DNA of 64,000 nt, from NCBI GenBank assembly GCA_016870355.1, contig VGBR01000011.1, positions 33,140-97,139 of the forward strand. The letters are read 5' to 3'. Positions 4,102 through 44,149 of this stretch are shown here, piece after piece (within the stretch, counting starts at the first letter, position 1; each line of letters starts with the position of its first letter). The DNA comes from Actinomycetota bacterium (GTDB taxonomy: Bacteria > Actinomycetota > Acidimicrobiia > IMCC26256 > PALSA-555). A program made the position numbers and the translations under genes. The notes beneath the pieces are model-generated. The model did not search any database. It was not told where the DNA came from and saw only the letters and a list, made by a program, of their open reading frames with translations.

Positions 4102-4206
4102 GCGCGTTCGGAACGGGTTGTAGCCCACGGCGGTACGGTACTTGCACAAGATGGAACGGAGGCGTGGCCGGACGGCCGGGACGCCGGAGTGGAATCGACC
4201 ATAGAG

Positions 4207-5016: not shown

Positions 5017-5042
5017 TCATCGGCGAGGAGCTCGACCCCCGC

Positions 5043-5091
5043 GTTCTCGGCACGCTGAACAACAAGTAGAGAGGTTGAGCGTGCCGAGAAC
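5043..5091. repeat. REP-like inverted repeat, family B, copy 1 (18-bp arms, 13-nt loop) between convergent genes
   Basis: GTTCTCGGCACGCTGAAC-N13-GTTGAGCGTGCCGAGAAC; same arms at 33631-33677. Confidence 0.85.
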
Positions 5092-5097
5092 CCGTTC

Positions 5098-6213
5098 TTA
5101 CCGGGGCCAGATTGCTCCTTGGTGACGGGTGATCCATCCGGTGCGTTCGAGCTCGAACAGCGCCACGGCGACGCGCTCTGGCGGGAGGTCGGCGCGGCTG
5201 GCGAGCTGATCGGGTGTCGCCACGTCGCCACCGAGAGCACGAAGCAGCGCGGCGCCCTCGCGGCCCGGGGCGGGGCGGGGTGGCGGCTTCAGCACGGGTG
5301 CGCTCCCATCTGACAACCCAAGCGCGACGAGCAGATCGCTCCACTCGAGCAGCGGTTGGGCTCCGTCGGCGATCAGCTGGTTGGTGCCGGCTGCCGCGGG
5401 GTTGCGGCGAGAGCCGGGCACCGCGAGCACGGTGCGGCCGTACTCCAACGCGAACTGCGCGCTGATGCGAGCGCCACCCTTGAGGGTCGCCTCGACGACG
5501 ATCAGGATCTCTGCGAGGGCGGCGATGATCCGGTTGCGCACGGGGAAGCGCCAGCGCTCGGGTCGAGTGCCGTATGCAGCCTCGGTGATCACCACCCCGC
5601 GTTCTCGCACTCGTGCGTAGAGCGCGCGATGACGACGTGGGTACTCGATGTCGAGCCCGGTCGCGACGACGCCGACGGCCAGTCCGCCCGCGTCGAGCGC
5701 TCCTTCGTGCGCCGCGGCGTCGATGCCGATGGCCATCCCGCTGACCACGGTGACGCCGATCGCGCCGAGATACGCGCCGATCTCGTAGGCATCGGTGAGG
5801 CCGTGAGGTGTGGCCGCGCGAGTGCCGACCACGGCGACGCGGCGCGCGTCGAGCGCACTCGCCATCGAGCCTTCGCCGAGGAGCACAGGAGCGCGGTCGG
5901 GGATCTCGTCACCGATCGGGTAGCCCGGGCTGCCCTCCACCCACACCTTGGTGTGCCGTCGGGCGAGACGAGCGGCCGTCGTGTCCGGGTCGGCGTGTGC
6001 TCTCCAGCTCGATGCGAGCTCGCGCGGAGACACCGCGTGGGGGGTGCCGCGTTCAGCCGTCAGTGGCGCCTCTGCCGCGCGGCCAGCTTGCACGGCGGCC
6101 AGCGCAACTCGCGGTCCACCGAAGTGGTCGAACAGCATCTGCAACCGCACGGGTGTCATCTTGGGTAGCGAGACCAGCGTCGCCGCGGCGATCGCTTCGT
6201 TCGAGGCGCTCAC
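5098..6213 (-). CDS. dprA: DNA-processing protein DprA
   Basis: VAVVGTR, VSGMAIGID..AH, FPVRNRIIA motifs; C-terminal winged helix. Confidence 0.95.
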   Translation of the reverse strand: MSASNEAIAAATLVSLPKMTPVRLQMLFDHFGGPRVALAAVQAGRAAEAPLTAERGTPHAVSPRELASSWRAHADPDTTAARLARRHTKVWVEGSPGYPIGDEIPDRAPVLLGEGSMASALDARRVAVVGTRAATPHGLTDAYEIGAYLGAIGVTVVSGMAIGIDAAAHEGALDAGGLAVGVVATGLDIEYPRRHRALYARVRERGVVITEAAYGTRPERWRFPVRNRIIAALAEILIVVEATLKGGARISAQFALEYGRTVLAVPGSRRNPAAAGTNQLIADGAQPLLEWSDLLVALGLSDGSAPVLKPPPRPAPGREGAALLRALGGDVATPDQLASRADLPPERVAVALFELERTGWITRHQGAIWPR

Positions 6214-26173: not shown

Positions 26174-26950
26174 CTACTGGTGGAGGCCGCACTCCAGCTT
26201 GCCGGTGCCTGACCAGCGGCCGGCGCGGGGGTCTTCACCGGGCTCGATGGTGCGCGTGCACGGCCAGCAGCCGATCGAGCCGTAGCCGCGGTCGTGCAGC
26301 GGGTGGCGCGGGAGATCACGGTCGGCCTCGTACTGACGGACGTCGTGCTCGGTCCACGTGGCGATCGGGTTGACCTTCACCATGCCGCGACCGAGGTCGA
26401 ACGACACGATCGGCGCGTTGGCACGGGCCGGCGTCTCCTCGCGCCGCAGCCCTGACATCCACGCGTCCTTGCCAACGAGCGCGCGCTCGAGCGGTCCGAC
26501 CTTGCGGGCCGCGCAGCAGGTGTCGATGTCGGTCTTCCACCGGTCGTCGGGGTCGATGGCCGGGCGCACGATGTTGAGGTTGAGGTCGTAGCGCTCGCGC
26601 ACGTGCTCGACGTACCAGAGCGTCTCCGCGAAGTGGTACTGCGTGTCGAGGAACGCAATCTCGATCTCCGGCGCGACCTGCATGGCCAGATCGATCAGCA
26701 CGCAGTCCTGGAACGACGACGCCAGCGTCACATCCGGACCGAAGCGCTCCCATGCCCACTTGATGACCGTCGTGGCCGGCGCCGCCTCGAACTCCTTCGA
26801 GACCGTCGCCAGCTCACCCAGATCCGGGATCTCGTGCGGCGCGGCAACCGGAGCGAGGGGAGCGAGCGCAGGTTGCTCGCTCAGCGAGAGAGCGCCCGCG
26901 GCGGAGGTACCCTCCGCCGCAGCGAGCGAGCGAGACAAGGAGGCGCTCAT
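26174..26950 (-). CDS. cysH: APS/PAPS reductase CysH (Fe-S type)
   Basis: FLDTQYHFAET, CC..RK, GYGSIGCWPCT, ECGLH C-terminus. Confidence 0.95.
   Translation of the reverse strand: MSASLSRSLAAAEGTSAAGALSLSEQPALAPLAPVAAPHEIPDLGELATVSKEFEAAPATTVIKWAWERFGPDVTLASSFQDCVLIDLAMQVAPEIEIAFLDTQYHFAETLWYVEHVRERYDLNLNIVRPAIDPDDRWKTDIDTCCAARKVGPLERALVGKDAWMSGLRREETPARANAPIVSFDLGRGMVKVNPIATWTEHDVRQYEADRDLPRHPLHDRGYGSIGCWPCTRTIEPGEDPRAGRWSGTGKLECGLHQ
26878..26949 (-). repeat. 66-bp in-frame palindromic insert at the 5' end of cysH, flanked by TGAGCG direct repeats
   Basis: Central hairpin GCGGCGGAGG-TAC-CCTCCGCCGC; TGAGCG at 26949-26944 and 26883-26878. Confidence 0.65.
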
Positions 26951-28722: not shown

Positions 28723-28873
28723 GACGGCCTCGCCTCCATTGGTCGACTCCGCTTCGTCGTCCCGGCCGTCCGGCCACGACTTCGCTGCGTTTCGATGATG
28801 AGGTCTTGCGAGAGGTAAGACACGCGCGGCTCCCGGAAAGGAGGGACGGGGAAGCGGGGCGCGGGCGCTGTGA

Positions 28874-33619: not shown

Positions 33620-33630
33620 CGAACACCGGG

Positions 33631-33677
33631 TTTTCGGCACGCTGAACCCAACTCTGTGTTGTTCAGCGTGCCGAAAA
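33631..33677. repeat. REP-like inverted repeat, family B, copy 2 (17-bp arms, 13-nt loop) between convergent genes
   Basis: TTTTCGGCACGCTGAAC-N13-GTTCAGCGTGCCGAAAA. Confidence 0.85.
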
Positions 33678-33692
33678 ACCGGGTGGGATGCG

Positions 33693-34886
33693 TCAGACGG
33701 AGACGGTGGCGGGTGCGGGGCGGTAGCTCTCGACGCGCAGCGTGTCGAGCAAGAGAGCGACTTGGTCGGGGTTGCCTTCCACGCCGATGCGACCGAAGCC
33801 GTCGTCGGTGCACTGCTCGATCGCTGAGTAGTTGGGAAGCTCCAGCGGTGGGCGAGTCGAGCACGGACCTGGCGTGAGCACGACGCTCACGTAGATGTCG
33901 CTGCCGTTCGACCACGACAGCTCGATCGGGTAGCGGCTCGGGTCGCCCGTGAACGAAGACTTCGCGAGCTGCACACCCTCCGCCTCGACCTGGTCATGGG
34001 CGAAGCGCACCGGCGCGGACGGAGTCAGCACCGGGAAGCCGTCCTTCGACGTGTAACCCGTGAGGTGCCGCGCGACGCGCGCCCGGTCTCGCTCGCTGAG
34101 CACTTCGTCGCCGTCGTCGTTGAACTGGTAGGTGCGAGAGACGAAGCCAGTCCACTTGCCCAGATCGATCACCAAGCCCATGCGCGCGTCGAGCTCGACC
34201 TCCCGCTGACCGGTCGGACCTTCGTACGTGCGCACGAGCTGTTGGGCTTCCACCGCGCCCGGTTGGAACGACACGGTGATCGGTGGACCGTCGTCCAGCA
34301 GCAGCTCGGCGTACGGCCGCACCTTCCACCCGTCGGACATCTCCTCCGGCAGGATCAGCTTCGCCCGCGCCCCGTCGGGAAAGGTGAGCGCGACTTGGTG
34401 CGCGCCGCTCGCGACGGTCGACGCGACCTCGTGCTGCCGATAGGGGATCTTCTTCGGATCGCCGGGACAGCGAACCGGCGTCCACTCCAGCAAGATCGCG
34501 CACACCGTGTCGCGGGCCACGAGCCAACGCCCGTCGATCTTGTGCGCGGCGCCCGGCCACCCGGTGACGAGCATCCCGTTCGCCATCAGGCTGGCGTTCA
34601 CCTCGGCATCGCCGCCGAACGCATGGACCGAGTACACCTCGATCCCGGTTGACTGGATGGGGAAGCCGCTGATGTCGTCCAGCGAATCGAGCTCGCGGAG
34701 GGTGGCACGGAGCTTCTCGCCGTCCTCGAGGTGGGTGAGGCGCTCTCCGAGCGGGATGGACCGGTCGAACACCCGCGCGTACGCCTCACGGATCTGAGCC
34801 TCAGCACCCACATCCTTGGCTCCAGCCACGGGCGCCATCCCGAGCGACACCAAGACCAGCGCGACGAGGACGAGGGGGCGGCTCAC
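33693..34886 (-). CDS. Secreted hypothetical protein
   Basis: Signal peptide (AGA site); two Cys pairs; N-domain ends G.A..IDGRWLVARDTVC. Confidence 0.75.
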   Translation of the reverse strand: MSRPLVLVALVLVSLGMAPVAGAKDVGAEAQIREAYARVFDRSIPLGERLTHLEDGEKLRATLRELDSLDDISGFPIQSTGIEVYSVHAFGGDAEVNASLMANGMLVTGWPGAAHKIDGRWLVARDTVCAILLEWTPVRCPGDPKKIPYRQHEVASTVASGAHQVALTFPDGARAKLILPEEMSDGWKVRPYAELLLDDGPPITVSFQPGAVEAQQLVRTYEGPTGQREVELDARMGLVIDLGKWTGFVSRTYQFNDDGDEVLSERDRARVARHLTGYTSKDGFPVLTPSAPVRFAHDQVEAEGVQLAKSSFTGDPSRYPIELSWSNGSDIYVSVVLTPGPCSTRPPLELPNYSAIEQCTDDGFGRIGVEGNPDQVALLLDTLRVESYRPAPATVSV

Positions 34887-34965
34887 GCCGGTTCGACGCC
34901 CTGCCGAGCGTCCGCGTTGCCTGTGGGAACCCTGATCGGCCAGAGAAATTCAGGGCGTCCTCTGG

Positions 34966-34971
34966 TACAAT
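34966..34971 (+). promoter_or_regulatory. Extended -10 (TGG-TACAAT) of the rimP-nusA-infB operon
   Basis: Near-consensus -10 about 105 nt before rimP. Confidence 0.65.
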
Positions 34972-35015
34972 CTCTCGGCAAGTTCGGCTGGCGAGACGGC
35001 CCCCCGGTCGTCGAC

Positions 35016-35044
35016 GACGTGGGCATGTGCCCACGTCTTTTTTT
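35016..35044 (+). terminator. Intrinsic terminator/attenuator in the rimP leader
   Basis: GACGTGGGC-ATGT-GCCCACGTC followed by T7, between promoter and rimP. Confidence 0.85.
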
Positions 35045-35076
35045 CGGGCGAGCGCCCGGGAGGAGGTGAGGCGGCG

Positions 35077-35721
35077 ATGACGGACCGACCTGCCTCCTTG
35101 GTCGACTCCGCAAGCTCCGTCTCCTCAGGAGGCGAGCAGCGGAGCCCCTCGCCTCCTCAAGCCTTGGTCGACGCCGTCGAGCCCGTCCTCAGCCGCCTCG
35201 GACTCGAGCTCTACGACCTCGAGCTCGTCGGCCGCCCGCCGAGCCGCATCCTGCGCATCACGATCGACCGCGCAGGCGGCGGCTCTGCCGACCGCCGGAG
35301 CACGGAGTCGTCGCCTGCGACGGCGACCAATGTGGGCGAGGGCGGCGTCGACCTCGACGCGATCACCGCGACCACCGAGGCGCTCTCACCCATCCTCGAC
35401 CACGACCCCGCAGCCGAGGCGGTCCTGCGCGGCGCGTACACGCTCGAAGTCACCAGCCCCGGCCTCGAGCGCAGCCTGCGTACGCCCGACCACTTCCGGC
35501 GCGCCATCGGCACCACGGTCTCGGTCAAGACGGGCGCGGGCGCCGACGCGCAGCGCCGTCGCGGCACCCTCGTGGGCGCCGACGACGCCAGCCTCGACCT
35601 CGACGTCGACGGCACCCGCGAGCACATCGCCTACGCCGACGTCATCCAAGCCCGCACGGTTTTCGAGTGGGGCTCCGCTTCCACGCCGAAGCGCGGCAAG
35701 CGTCAGAAGGTCTCAACATGA
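35077..35721 (+). CDS. rimP: Ribosome maturation factor RimP with two repeat-derived insertions
   Basis: LELYDLE, GGVDLD, YTLEVTSPGLER.L; upstream of nusA. Confidence 0.93.
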   Translation: MTDRPASLVDSASSVSSGGEQRSPSPPQALVDAVEPVLSRLGLELYDLELVGRPPSRILRITIDRAGGGSADRRSTESSPATATNVGEGGVDLDAITATTEALSPILDHDPAAEAVLRGAYTLEVTSPGLERSLRTPDHFRRAIGTTVSVKTGAGADAQRRRGTLVGADDASLDLDVDGTREHIAYADVIQARTVFEWGSASTPKRGKRQKVST

Positions 35722-35797
35722 ACAGGGAACACAGCGAAGCCGTGCTCGGACGAGCCCAATCGGTGAGGGCGCGGCGTAGCGGAGTCACCCAATGAAC
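35718..35797 (+). repeat. 74-bp insert at the rimP/nusA overlap with ATGAAC direct repeats, forming a 25-aa bridging ORF
   Basis: ATGAAC at 35718 and 35792; ORF 35718-35795 overlaps the rimP stop and the nusA start; contains GCGGAGTCACCCAATG. Confidence 0.65.
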
Positions 35798-37048
35798 TCC
35801 GAGATGATGGAGGCGCTCGAGAACATCGAGCGCGAGAAGGGCATCTCGGTCGAGATCATGCTCGAGGCGCTCGCGAACGCGCTTGTCACCGCCTACAAGC
35901 GGCTGCCGAGCTCGGCCGAGGAAGCGCTCGTCGAGATCGACGTCGAGACCGGCGACATCAAGGTGATCGCGCAGGAGCTCGACGAAGAGGGGCATGTCGT
36001 CCGAGAGTGGGACGACACCCCCGACGACTTCGGTCGCATCGCCGCGCAGACCGCGAAGCAAGTGATCCTCCAGCGGATCCGCGACGCCGAGCGCGAGATG
36101 AAGTACGAGGAGTACGCCGGCCGCGAGGGCGACATCGTCACCGGCATCATCCAGCAGACCGATCAGCGCTACACGCTGCTCGACCTCGGTCGCGTGGAGG
36201 CGCTCCTCCCGCAGGCCGAGCAGGTGCAGAACGAGCGCTACGAGCACGGCTCGCGCCTCAAGGCCTACATCCTCGAGGTGCGCAAGACGGCGAAGGGCCC
36301 CCAGATCGTCGTGTCGCGCACGCACCCGGGTCTCGTGAAGCGGTTGTTCGAGCTCGAGGTGCCCGAGATCGTCGACGGTGTCGTCGAGCTCAAGGCCATC
36401 GCGCGCGAGCCCGGCCACCGCACGAAGATCGCGGTGGCGTCCAACGACAACAACGTCGACCCCGTCGGCGCCTGCGTCGGTGCGCGCGGCTCGCGCGTGC
36501 GCATGGTCGTCAACGAGCTCCGCGGTGAGAAGGTCGACATCGTCCCCTACAACAACGACGCCTCCGAGTTCGTGATGAAGGCGCTGGCCCCAGCGCGTGT
36601 CCGTGAGGTCCGCATCCACGAAGACACCGGCACCGCCGAGGTGATCGTCCCCGACTTCCAGCTGTCGCTCGCGATCGGCAAGGAAGGCCAGAACGCTCGC
36701 CTCGCGGCGCGCCTCAGCGGCTGGCGGGTCGACATCAAGAGTGAGACGCAGCTCCACGACGAGGAGTCCGGCGGCTCGGTCGAGTACGCCGAGGGTGAGT
36801 GGGTGCAGAACGAGAGCGGCGAGCTCGTGTTCCAGCCCGCAGAGGGCGGCGAGGCGATCTCGGCCGCCGAAGCGGGGTACGAAGTCACGGCCGGGGATGG
36901 CGACGGCGACGGATCGCCGCCTGCCGACGCTCCCGACGCCGCGCCGGCCGCGGAGCCTGCGGCGGAAGCCGCCGACGACACAGCCGATGCCGCAGCCGAA
37001 TCCACCGCCGCGGTGGCGCCGGCAGCAGAGGAGACCGTCGAAGGGTGA
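35792..37048 (+). CDS. nusA: Transcription termination/antitermination factor NusA
   Basis: [40 protein letters not shown]. Confidence 0.98.
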
Positions 37049-43894: not shown

Positions 43895-44149
43895 CGCGCG
43901 CCGCCGGATCAGCGCTCGTCGATGTCCTCGCAGGTCCACTCGTGAGGCAGGAGGGGAGGTTCCCCTGCACGACTTCGATCGGCACCCGCCCCATGTGTCC
44001 TCGGGCCGGCTGCCCTGCGGAGGCGGCGGCTGTGCCGACCGCCGTAGCAGGAGCCGTCGCTCCGACGGCGACCAAGAGAGCCTGGTAGCCTGATCCGGTT
44101 CCGGCCACCGGGCTGGAGCACCTTCCACTGCAAGGCACTTCTGCGACGC

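Follow-up and report, generated by a model that had tools for sequence, protein, structure and literature searches.

Two kinds of small repeats come closest to what we report here. As described in PMC12548453 (citing Supply 1997), MIRUs insert at start codons and have an internal open reading frame (ORF) that is coupled at -4. PMC3184786 describes tetranucleotide direct repeats in MIRUs, with ORFs that overlap the neighboring genes, and (citing Ogata 2000) RPEs that sit in frame in genes. Given these precedents, repeats that are in frame or that form a relay ORF are not new in kind. To our knowledge, the movement of MIRU-type repeats has lacked an explanation since 1997, and nearly all work on them has been in mycobacteria.

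Here, in a lake-water genome from the class Acidimicrobiia, three segments in and around rimP are repeat elements that were inserted with the reading frame and the translational coupling intact. In the window (the whole stretch of DNA that we analyzed, 64,000 nt), rimP is at 35077-35721 on the + strand: it has 214 codons and carries two 66-nt repeat-derived in-frame inserts, as judged from the ORF, Pfam, and orthologue alignment. It is followed by a 25-codon relay ORF (35718-35795, + strand), whose ATG overlaps the rimP stop codon (ATGA) and whose TGA overlaps the nusA start codon (also ATGA), and by nusA (35792-37048, + strand), an ORF whose ATG is at 35792 and whose relatives are 79-97% identical. 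In the rimP product, Pfam finds RimP_N at residues 34-131, which is laid on a 73-position profile and is thus stretched, as well as the RimP C-terminal domain. An Rfam scan of 34500-36500, with E up to 10, gave chance-level matches only. Upstream of rimP is a 397-codon gene (33693-34886, - strand) that has no Pfam match at E 1e-5.

The assembly of this metagenome-assembled genome (MAG) is not at fault for the three inserts, because independent contigs from four other lake-water runs (35009-35418, 35445-35833, and 35274-35841) span all of them with 0 differences; one of these four runs is from a different year and study. More broadly, the stretch is present in many lake-water metagenome runs, and about 5% of sampled words were present in RNA runs. 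Joints that skip an insert, as expected for empty alleles, were absent from the contigs of the four lake runs, which is weak evidence because contigs drop rare variants. These contigs thus give no sign of current mobility.

Insert (a) is a 66-nt element of family F7 (35092-35157, - strand) that lies after codon 5 of rimP and is antisense to the gene (nhmmer, E = 3.7e-9 for 35092-35150). It includes an inverted repeat in the 5' end of rimP, with GCCTCCT at 35092-35098 and AGGAGGC at 35127-35133. An 11-nt direct repeat, CCTTGGTCGAC, occurs at 35096 and 35162, that is, 66 nt apart, so the placement of insert (a) is ambiguous. When aligned at the nucleotide level, two congeneric genomes (G001 and G003) each have a clean 66-nt gap at this site. 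Our rough gene caller placed the start of rimP downstream of insert (a).

Insert (b) is a 66-nt element of family F6 (35281-35346, + strand) with two hairpins, and it is also in frame (nhmmer E = 1.3e-17; 87 bits with covariance model R1). It has GGCGGC at both borders and sits between ..IDRAGG and GVDLD..; its 22 added residues separate a strand from a helix in the N-terminal domain. It too is a clean 66-nt gap in the nucleotide alignments with G001 and G003, and the segment is present in 0 of 28 informative RimP orthologues in the protein alignment. When RimP was searched against 40 relatives, the match in most of the genomes came in pieces that break at residues 68 and 88. The AlphaFold model of RimP (from 23 sequences) has a mean pLDDT of 80, with values over 90 in the core and of about 50-63 in two coil stretches, residues 1-25 and 66-92. 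Within these parts, the region of insert (a) is predicted coil with a pLDDT of 55-63, and the residues of insert (b) are coil with a pLDDT of about 50. Both inserts are thus predicted to fall in disordered parts of RimP, an N-terminal tail and a surface loop, which would tolerate extra residues. Two minor observations concern insert (b). At 35330-35338, the SD-like GGAGG that usually follows the ATG in this family reads TGGGC, so an internal ribosome-binding motif was lost. Also, RimP from G010 (locus L007) is lengthened in the same loop by an unrelated insert of about 20 residues, which had no match to any of our family models.

These two copies resemble RPEs in being palindromic repeats that lie in frame in a gene for a conserved protein and that add a peptide segment without destroying the protein. 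They differ in that RPEs are about 105-146 nt and are from Rickettsia, while ours are 66 nt. Also, at most 7 of the 395 copies that we found in this genome lie in genes, and they keep no constant frame or orientation, as (a) is antisense and (b) is sense.

Insert (c) is a diverged 74-nt element of family F4 (35722-35795, + strand) and is MIRU-like (nhmmer E = 1.9e-5; 51 bits and E = 7.3e-9 with covariance model R2). It keeps both of the F4 stems despite 12 extra nucleotides in the internal loop. It splits the ancestral ATGA overlap between rimP and nusA, and ATGAAC is duplicated at its borders. In G003, this site is empty and the ATGA is intact; G001 has a homologous insert. A run of N, flanked by identical sequence, interrupts the junction insert of G001 (contig C15, locus L003); the cause is either a tandem array that the assembly left unresolved or an artefact of scaffolding.

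F4 shares several features with MIRUs: units of 40-100 nt in tens of copies (35 for F4), in operon spacers and co-oriented with genes; an internal ORF that overlaps both the upstream stop and the downstream start with -4 spacing; short direct repeats at filled versus empty sites; tandem arrays; and no known transposase. The MIRU host is also in the Actinomycetota. On the other hand, our host is from a different class (Acidimicrobiia), and its elements fall into several families that have covarying hairpins and the same module at the 3' end; two of these families (F6 and F7) are also found inside coding sequence. Homology between F4 and MIRUs is unsupported, because the covariance model for F4 had no matches in 150 other genomes from across the phylum, a sample of unspecified content. 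By analogy, the rimP/nusA element works like a MIRU, and the copies inside rimP work like RPEs and other repeats that are fused in frame; this is a statement of likeness and makes no claim of homology.

The three inserts belong to a large set of repeats. With the sequence of insert (b) alone as the query, we found 26 further copies in the 2.8-Mb genome at E<0.01, all as one element with two hairpins. A comparison of the genome to itself gave 404 regions that were covered at least 5 times; four families turned out to be pieces of paralogous genes and were set aside. Profile searches then gave at least 12 families of hairpin-forming elements of 55-115 nt, with 395 nonoverlapping copies that span 28.3 kb, or about 1% of the genome. 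F0 has 63 copies, F1 62, F3 42, F2 38, F6 36, F4 35 (of about 60-74 nt), F7 33, F8 28, F9 19, F10 15, F12 13, and F13 11. Thus, the three segments are multicopy and not unique, as the nhmmer and covariance-model matches to F7, F6, and F4 establish. The first-pass annotation, which was made from the sequence of the window, had described the palindrome in the rimP 5' end, the 66-bp insert flanked by GGCGGC, the 74-bp spacer flanked by ATGAAC, and the overlapping 25-aa ORF, and all of these can be read in the sequence. It had also proposed a common core in stated orientations, which corresponds to our inverted repeats I2 and I20: inserts (a), (b), and (c) have a common 3' core (GGAGTC..ACCAA), and the rest of each element differs. 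The single family that it had assigned them to did not hold up, and on their sequences the three are members of three families (F7, F6, and F4) with a common 3' module.

Secondary structure is conserved in both families that we modeled. F6 has hairpins of 9 and 7 pairs, with 94% of cells paired and 6 pairs with double changes (0 of 500 shuffles were as high), and F4 has two nested stems of 4 pairs each, with 99.5% of cells paired and 35 double-change cells versus 11 expected from shuffles; shared descent can inflate such covariation among related copies, and RNA hairpins and single-stranded DNA hairpins would look the same by this measure. Of 22 aligned copies of F6, 8 have GTAG ahead of the first hairpin. 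In addition, F6, F10, and F4 form tandem arrays of 2-5 units in this genome (G000:C8:98-304, C2:12675-12870, C10:31693-31877, C6:154062-154185, and C2:226632-226754). Their periods are about 61-70 nt, or 33 nt for the partial units at C10. One of them lies at the end of a contig, which hints that the assembly is interrupted by arrays. F4 also forms tandem arrays in G063 and G026.

Comparisons to related genomes showed that the polarity of these changes is insertion. A comparison of filled and empty sites had been suggested along with the original description, and sites (a) and (b) are empty in both G001 and G003, while (c) is empty in G003. Across the surrounding 20 kb, 8 of 8 elements are present in some and absent from others of the three genomes compared, all from one genus, and the same families occupy other places in these relatives. 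These observations support a noncoding, multicopy origin of the three segments. Copy numbers vary as well: the covariance model for F6 found 60 copies in this genome and 52, 13, 3, and 1 in the other four genomes of the genus. A few copies turned up in four further genera of the family, and the 16 genomes that we searched from the order's other families had none; three more distant MAG loci have F6-like copies. The F4 model found copies in 8 of 28 genomes from the same order (up to 40 scored copies) and in 0 of 92 genomes from the other orders of the class. Our literature searches turned up no account of repeats of this type in Acidimicrobiia.

The rimP/nusA junction has been altered repeatedly. 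We examined 105 loci with both rimP and nusA: the ATGA overlap is kept at 67, a short spacer separates the genes at 18, an insert of at least 55 nt is present at 15, and 5 were mismeasured. Many of the junction inserts are F4-like units of 65-68 nt that have ATGAA at the start and end just before the next ATGAA, and in other genomes these occur as one, two, or three tandem copies. The remaining junction inserts match F8 or none of the family models. The duplicated bases at this site always include ATGA. When the state of the junction was placed on a tree of NusA (96 rows, 82 of them distinct), 11 changes (gains or losses) were required, of which at least 6 are forced by well-supported branches. 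Furthermore, 9 of 11 distinct inserts (leaving out one locus with N and three duplicate rows) link the rimP stop to the nusA start by an unbroken ATGA-to-ATGA series of ORFs, through up to three tandem units; phase alone would keep such a chain in about one in three.

Elsewhere, most of the 395 copies are intergenic, in a genome that is 91% coding by our rough gene call. The claim that none of the inserts breaks the reading frame is correct for the inserts in rimP, but copies that reside in frame in a gene are rare genome-wide (at most 7 of 395, using a codon-score frame test that requires an open frame common to both flanks; this class relies on a home-made codon-score gene caller, and several of the 7 look like shadow frames). 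Just the in-frame copies in rimP were compared to orthologues. Since in-frame residence is rare, and since unit lengths are not restricted to multiples of three, the apparent absence of broken frames is best read as survivorship.

Some families show a strong orientation relative to genes. The 3' end is within 30 nt of a co-oriented gene start for 41 of 63 copies of F0, 17 of 19 copies of F9, 23 of 35 copies of F4, and 30 of 62 copies of F1; the antisense counterparts number 7, 0, 4, and 0, respectively. This co-orientation is not accounted for by a neutral filter and may reflect targeting or function. F6 (6 versus 6) and F7 (4 versus 4) have no orientation bias. The ends of the elements are enriched in translation signals, in agreement with the proposal that they carry ribosome-binding sites, start codons, and stop codons. 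SD-like 5-mers are at the 3' end of 12 of 15 copies of F10, 14 of 36 copies of F6, and 13 of 33 copies of F7 (versus a background of 7%). For F4, 27 of 35 copies have ATG or GTG at the 3' end (versus 32%), and 19 of 35 have a stop triplet at the 5' end (versus 18.5%). Short ORFs that are confined to the element and are coupled to a downstream start occur in 26 of 390 copies in sense and in 4 in antisense. Using a conservative test, full two-sided coupling is seen in 11 of 390 copies, and 7 of 35 copies of F4 pass the conservative test for downstream coupling genome-wide.

Three other sites in the window that had been listed as similar cases, near cysH, sir, and trmD, are also occupied by members of the repeat families. 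An F0 element (1901-1995, + strand) fills the spacer between rimM and trmD: its ATG at 1906, which is 2 nt past the rimM stop, shares the frame of the trmD ATG at 1990 and no stop codon intervenes, so TrmD could carry a repeat-encoded extension of 28 residues. An F1 element (26869-26935, + strand) lies in the 5' coding end of cysH, which is on the minus strand, just after the ATGA overlap of sir and cysH. This element is within the first 30 or so codons and antisense to the family orientation, and it leaves the frame open; the site is filled in G003 and empty in G001. Upstream of sir is an F4 element (28736-28798, - strand), in sense to the gene, whose internal short ORF has a stop that shares ATGA with the sir start; this site is filled in G001 and empty in G003. 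The window also contains an F6 element in the spacer between ribF and rpsO (44015-44081, + strand), at a place that cannot be aligned in G001 or G003, and an F4 element in sense orientation upstream of an enoyl-CoA hydratase gene (4148-4205, + strand). Outside the window, at G000:C5:25054-25112, there is a copy of F1 in an open frame of an 1138-codon ORF. The flanks of this copy resemble the alpha subunit of DNA polymerase III, which is our own reading of the peptides; this ORF is possibly a second core gene with an in-frame insert.

The window had been reported to lack a transposase, and we did not find a plausible mobilizing enzyme in the genome either. Matches of transposase type in this genome are one rve and one IS256-like only; there were no matches to IS110, TnpB, reverse transcriptase, or DDE_Tnp_1. 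Y1/RAYT (PF01797) was absent from all 6 of the element-rich genomes that we searched, and control genomes did give matches. A search for a gene between inverted copies of one family at a distance of 300-4000 nt, a RAYT-like signature, gave nine pairs and no candidate to follow. DUF559 was considered as the mobilizing enzyme and rejected: it is in 8 of 9 F4-positive and 12 of 20 F4-negative genomes of the same order, which is not an association, and one genome with 11 copies of F4 lacks it. Flanking direct repeats, which the first-pass annotation had noted for four inserts, are not clearly above chance across families. In a comparison that used approximate element boundaries, the repeats at the flanks averaged 5.43 nt for F4 (versus 4.90 for shuffled partners, sd 0.21), 5.48 versus 4.93 for F7, and 5.26 versus 5.16 for F6. 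Because these repeats are barely longer than those of shuffled partners, classical transposition with a fixed duplication is unsupported. In addition, the "duplicated" bases at (a) and (b) also belong to the end of the family consensus; as the repeated bases are the element's own end, microhomology or templated insertion is equally possible at these two sites.

These features also set the repeats apart from other known groups. They resemble REPs and BIMEs in being short, GC-rich, imperfect palindromes with compensatory changes in the stems that are mostly extragenic and present in hundreds of copies, but all 6 of our genomes lack Y1/RAYT, and our elements are mostly 5' of genes in sense, not 3'. 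Like the MITEs (for example, Correia, RUP, and ERIC; reviewed in PMC3184786, see also PMC10969869), they are small non-autonomous repeats that can be fused to genes in frame and that carry expression signals. Compared to MITEs, ours have no evident terminal inverted repeats or fixed target duplication, and we found no parent insertion sequence.

We think it likely (a probability of about 0.8) that these are non-autonomous elements that are spread by some activity, that three of them inserted in the rimP-nusA region, and that selection retains the copies that respect frame and coupling. On this reading, the 66-nt copies of F7 (antisense) and F6 (sense) inside rimP survive because each adds whole codons without a stop. 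The copy of F4 sits exactly at the ATGA overlap of rimP and nusA, duplicates ATGAAC, and carries an open frame. A ribosome that ends rimP could then start the 25-codon relay ORF, and ending the relay ORF would put it on the nusA start; as there are ATGA overlaps at both ends, translational coupling would be passed on. We expect that the relay ORF is translated. The preservation of frame and coupling would mainly reflect selection on insertions that were random or were biased towards boundaries, and a trans-acting activity or a templated recombination process would spread the elements.

We consider it extremely improbable that assembly errors, or ordinary indels specific to the lineage, produced the three segments independently of the repeats: the length of the RimP loop does vary elsewhere, as with the unrelated insert of about 20 residues in G010, but the family matches (E from 1e-17 to 1e-9) refute this reading as to family membership, and the independent contigs without differences and the presence of the same families at other places in relatives also argue against it. 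A more serious alternative, which we nevertheless consider unlikely, is that the repeats are chiefly cis-regulatory RNA modules of the host (acting as leaders, in ribosome binding, or in stability) that are copied because they are useful, with the rimP copies as by-products. The covarying stems and conserved loops would fit such a role, as would the enrichment of SD-like motifs and start codons at the 3' ends and the position of several families in sense just upstream of starts. However, covariation in the hairpins is also expected if single-stranded DNA is recognized, and the repeats have no match in Rfam. It would also be surprising for useful modules to differ in presence at 8 of 8 sites within a genus, to be as patchy as F4 is (8 of 28 genomes in the order and 0 of 92 in the class's other orders), and to occur in tandem arrays and inside genes.

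Selection on scattered insertions may also not be the whole story, as the elements could actively home to translational boundaries (starts and ATGA overlaps) by an insertion process that is guided by sequence or structure, so that position and orientation are set at insertion. Homing would account for the co-oriented starts near the 3' ends of F0, F9, F4, and F1, with few antisense cases; for the at least 6 independent changes at one ATGA junction, which involve at least three types of element; for the ATGA that is always among the duplicated bases at the rimP/nusA site; and for the resemblance of the target sites of (a) and (b) to the element's own end. Yet F6 and F7 have no orientation bias, two-sided coupling was found in only 11 of 390 copies (with a conservative test), no enzyme was found, and the same pattern could arise if selection removed insertions that are disruptive. 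Homing seems doubtful to us, although less so than a regulatory origin. About as tentatively, we can imagine an Acidimicrobiia-wide superfamily of structured elements of 60-90 nt, whose 3' module carries a ribosome-binding site and a start codon and which homes to junctions as a relay ORF, spread by an enzyme or a templated process of a kind that has not yet been linked to mobile DNA. If this were true, such elements would have landed at the rimP/nusA overlap again and again, at least 6 times.

These repeats are a further group, structurally distinct from MIRUs, that employs the same device of entering a stop/start overlap as a relay ORF. The many families, the covariation, the differences in presence within the genus, and the repeated hits at one junction give a comparative handle on the mechanism of insertion and on the rules of coupling. 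The in-frame inserts also reveal parts of RimP that tolerate 22 extra residues. When these genomes are annotated, gene callers will misplace starts and will list small ORFs that are not real or proteins with odd extensions.

Finally, the F3 family (42 copies, for example at 33622-33689 and 5031-5099) is a long, AT-flanked perfect palindrome that is mostly found after gene ends. By its sequence and position, it looks like a repeated bidirectional terminator.
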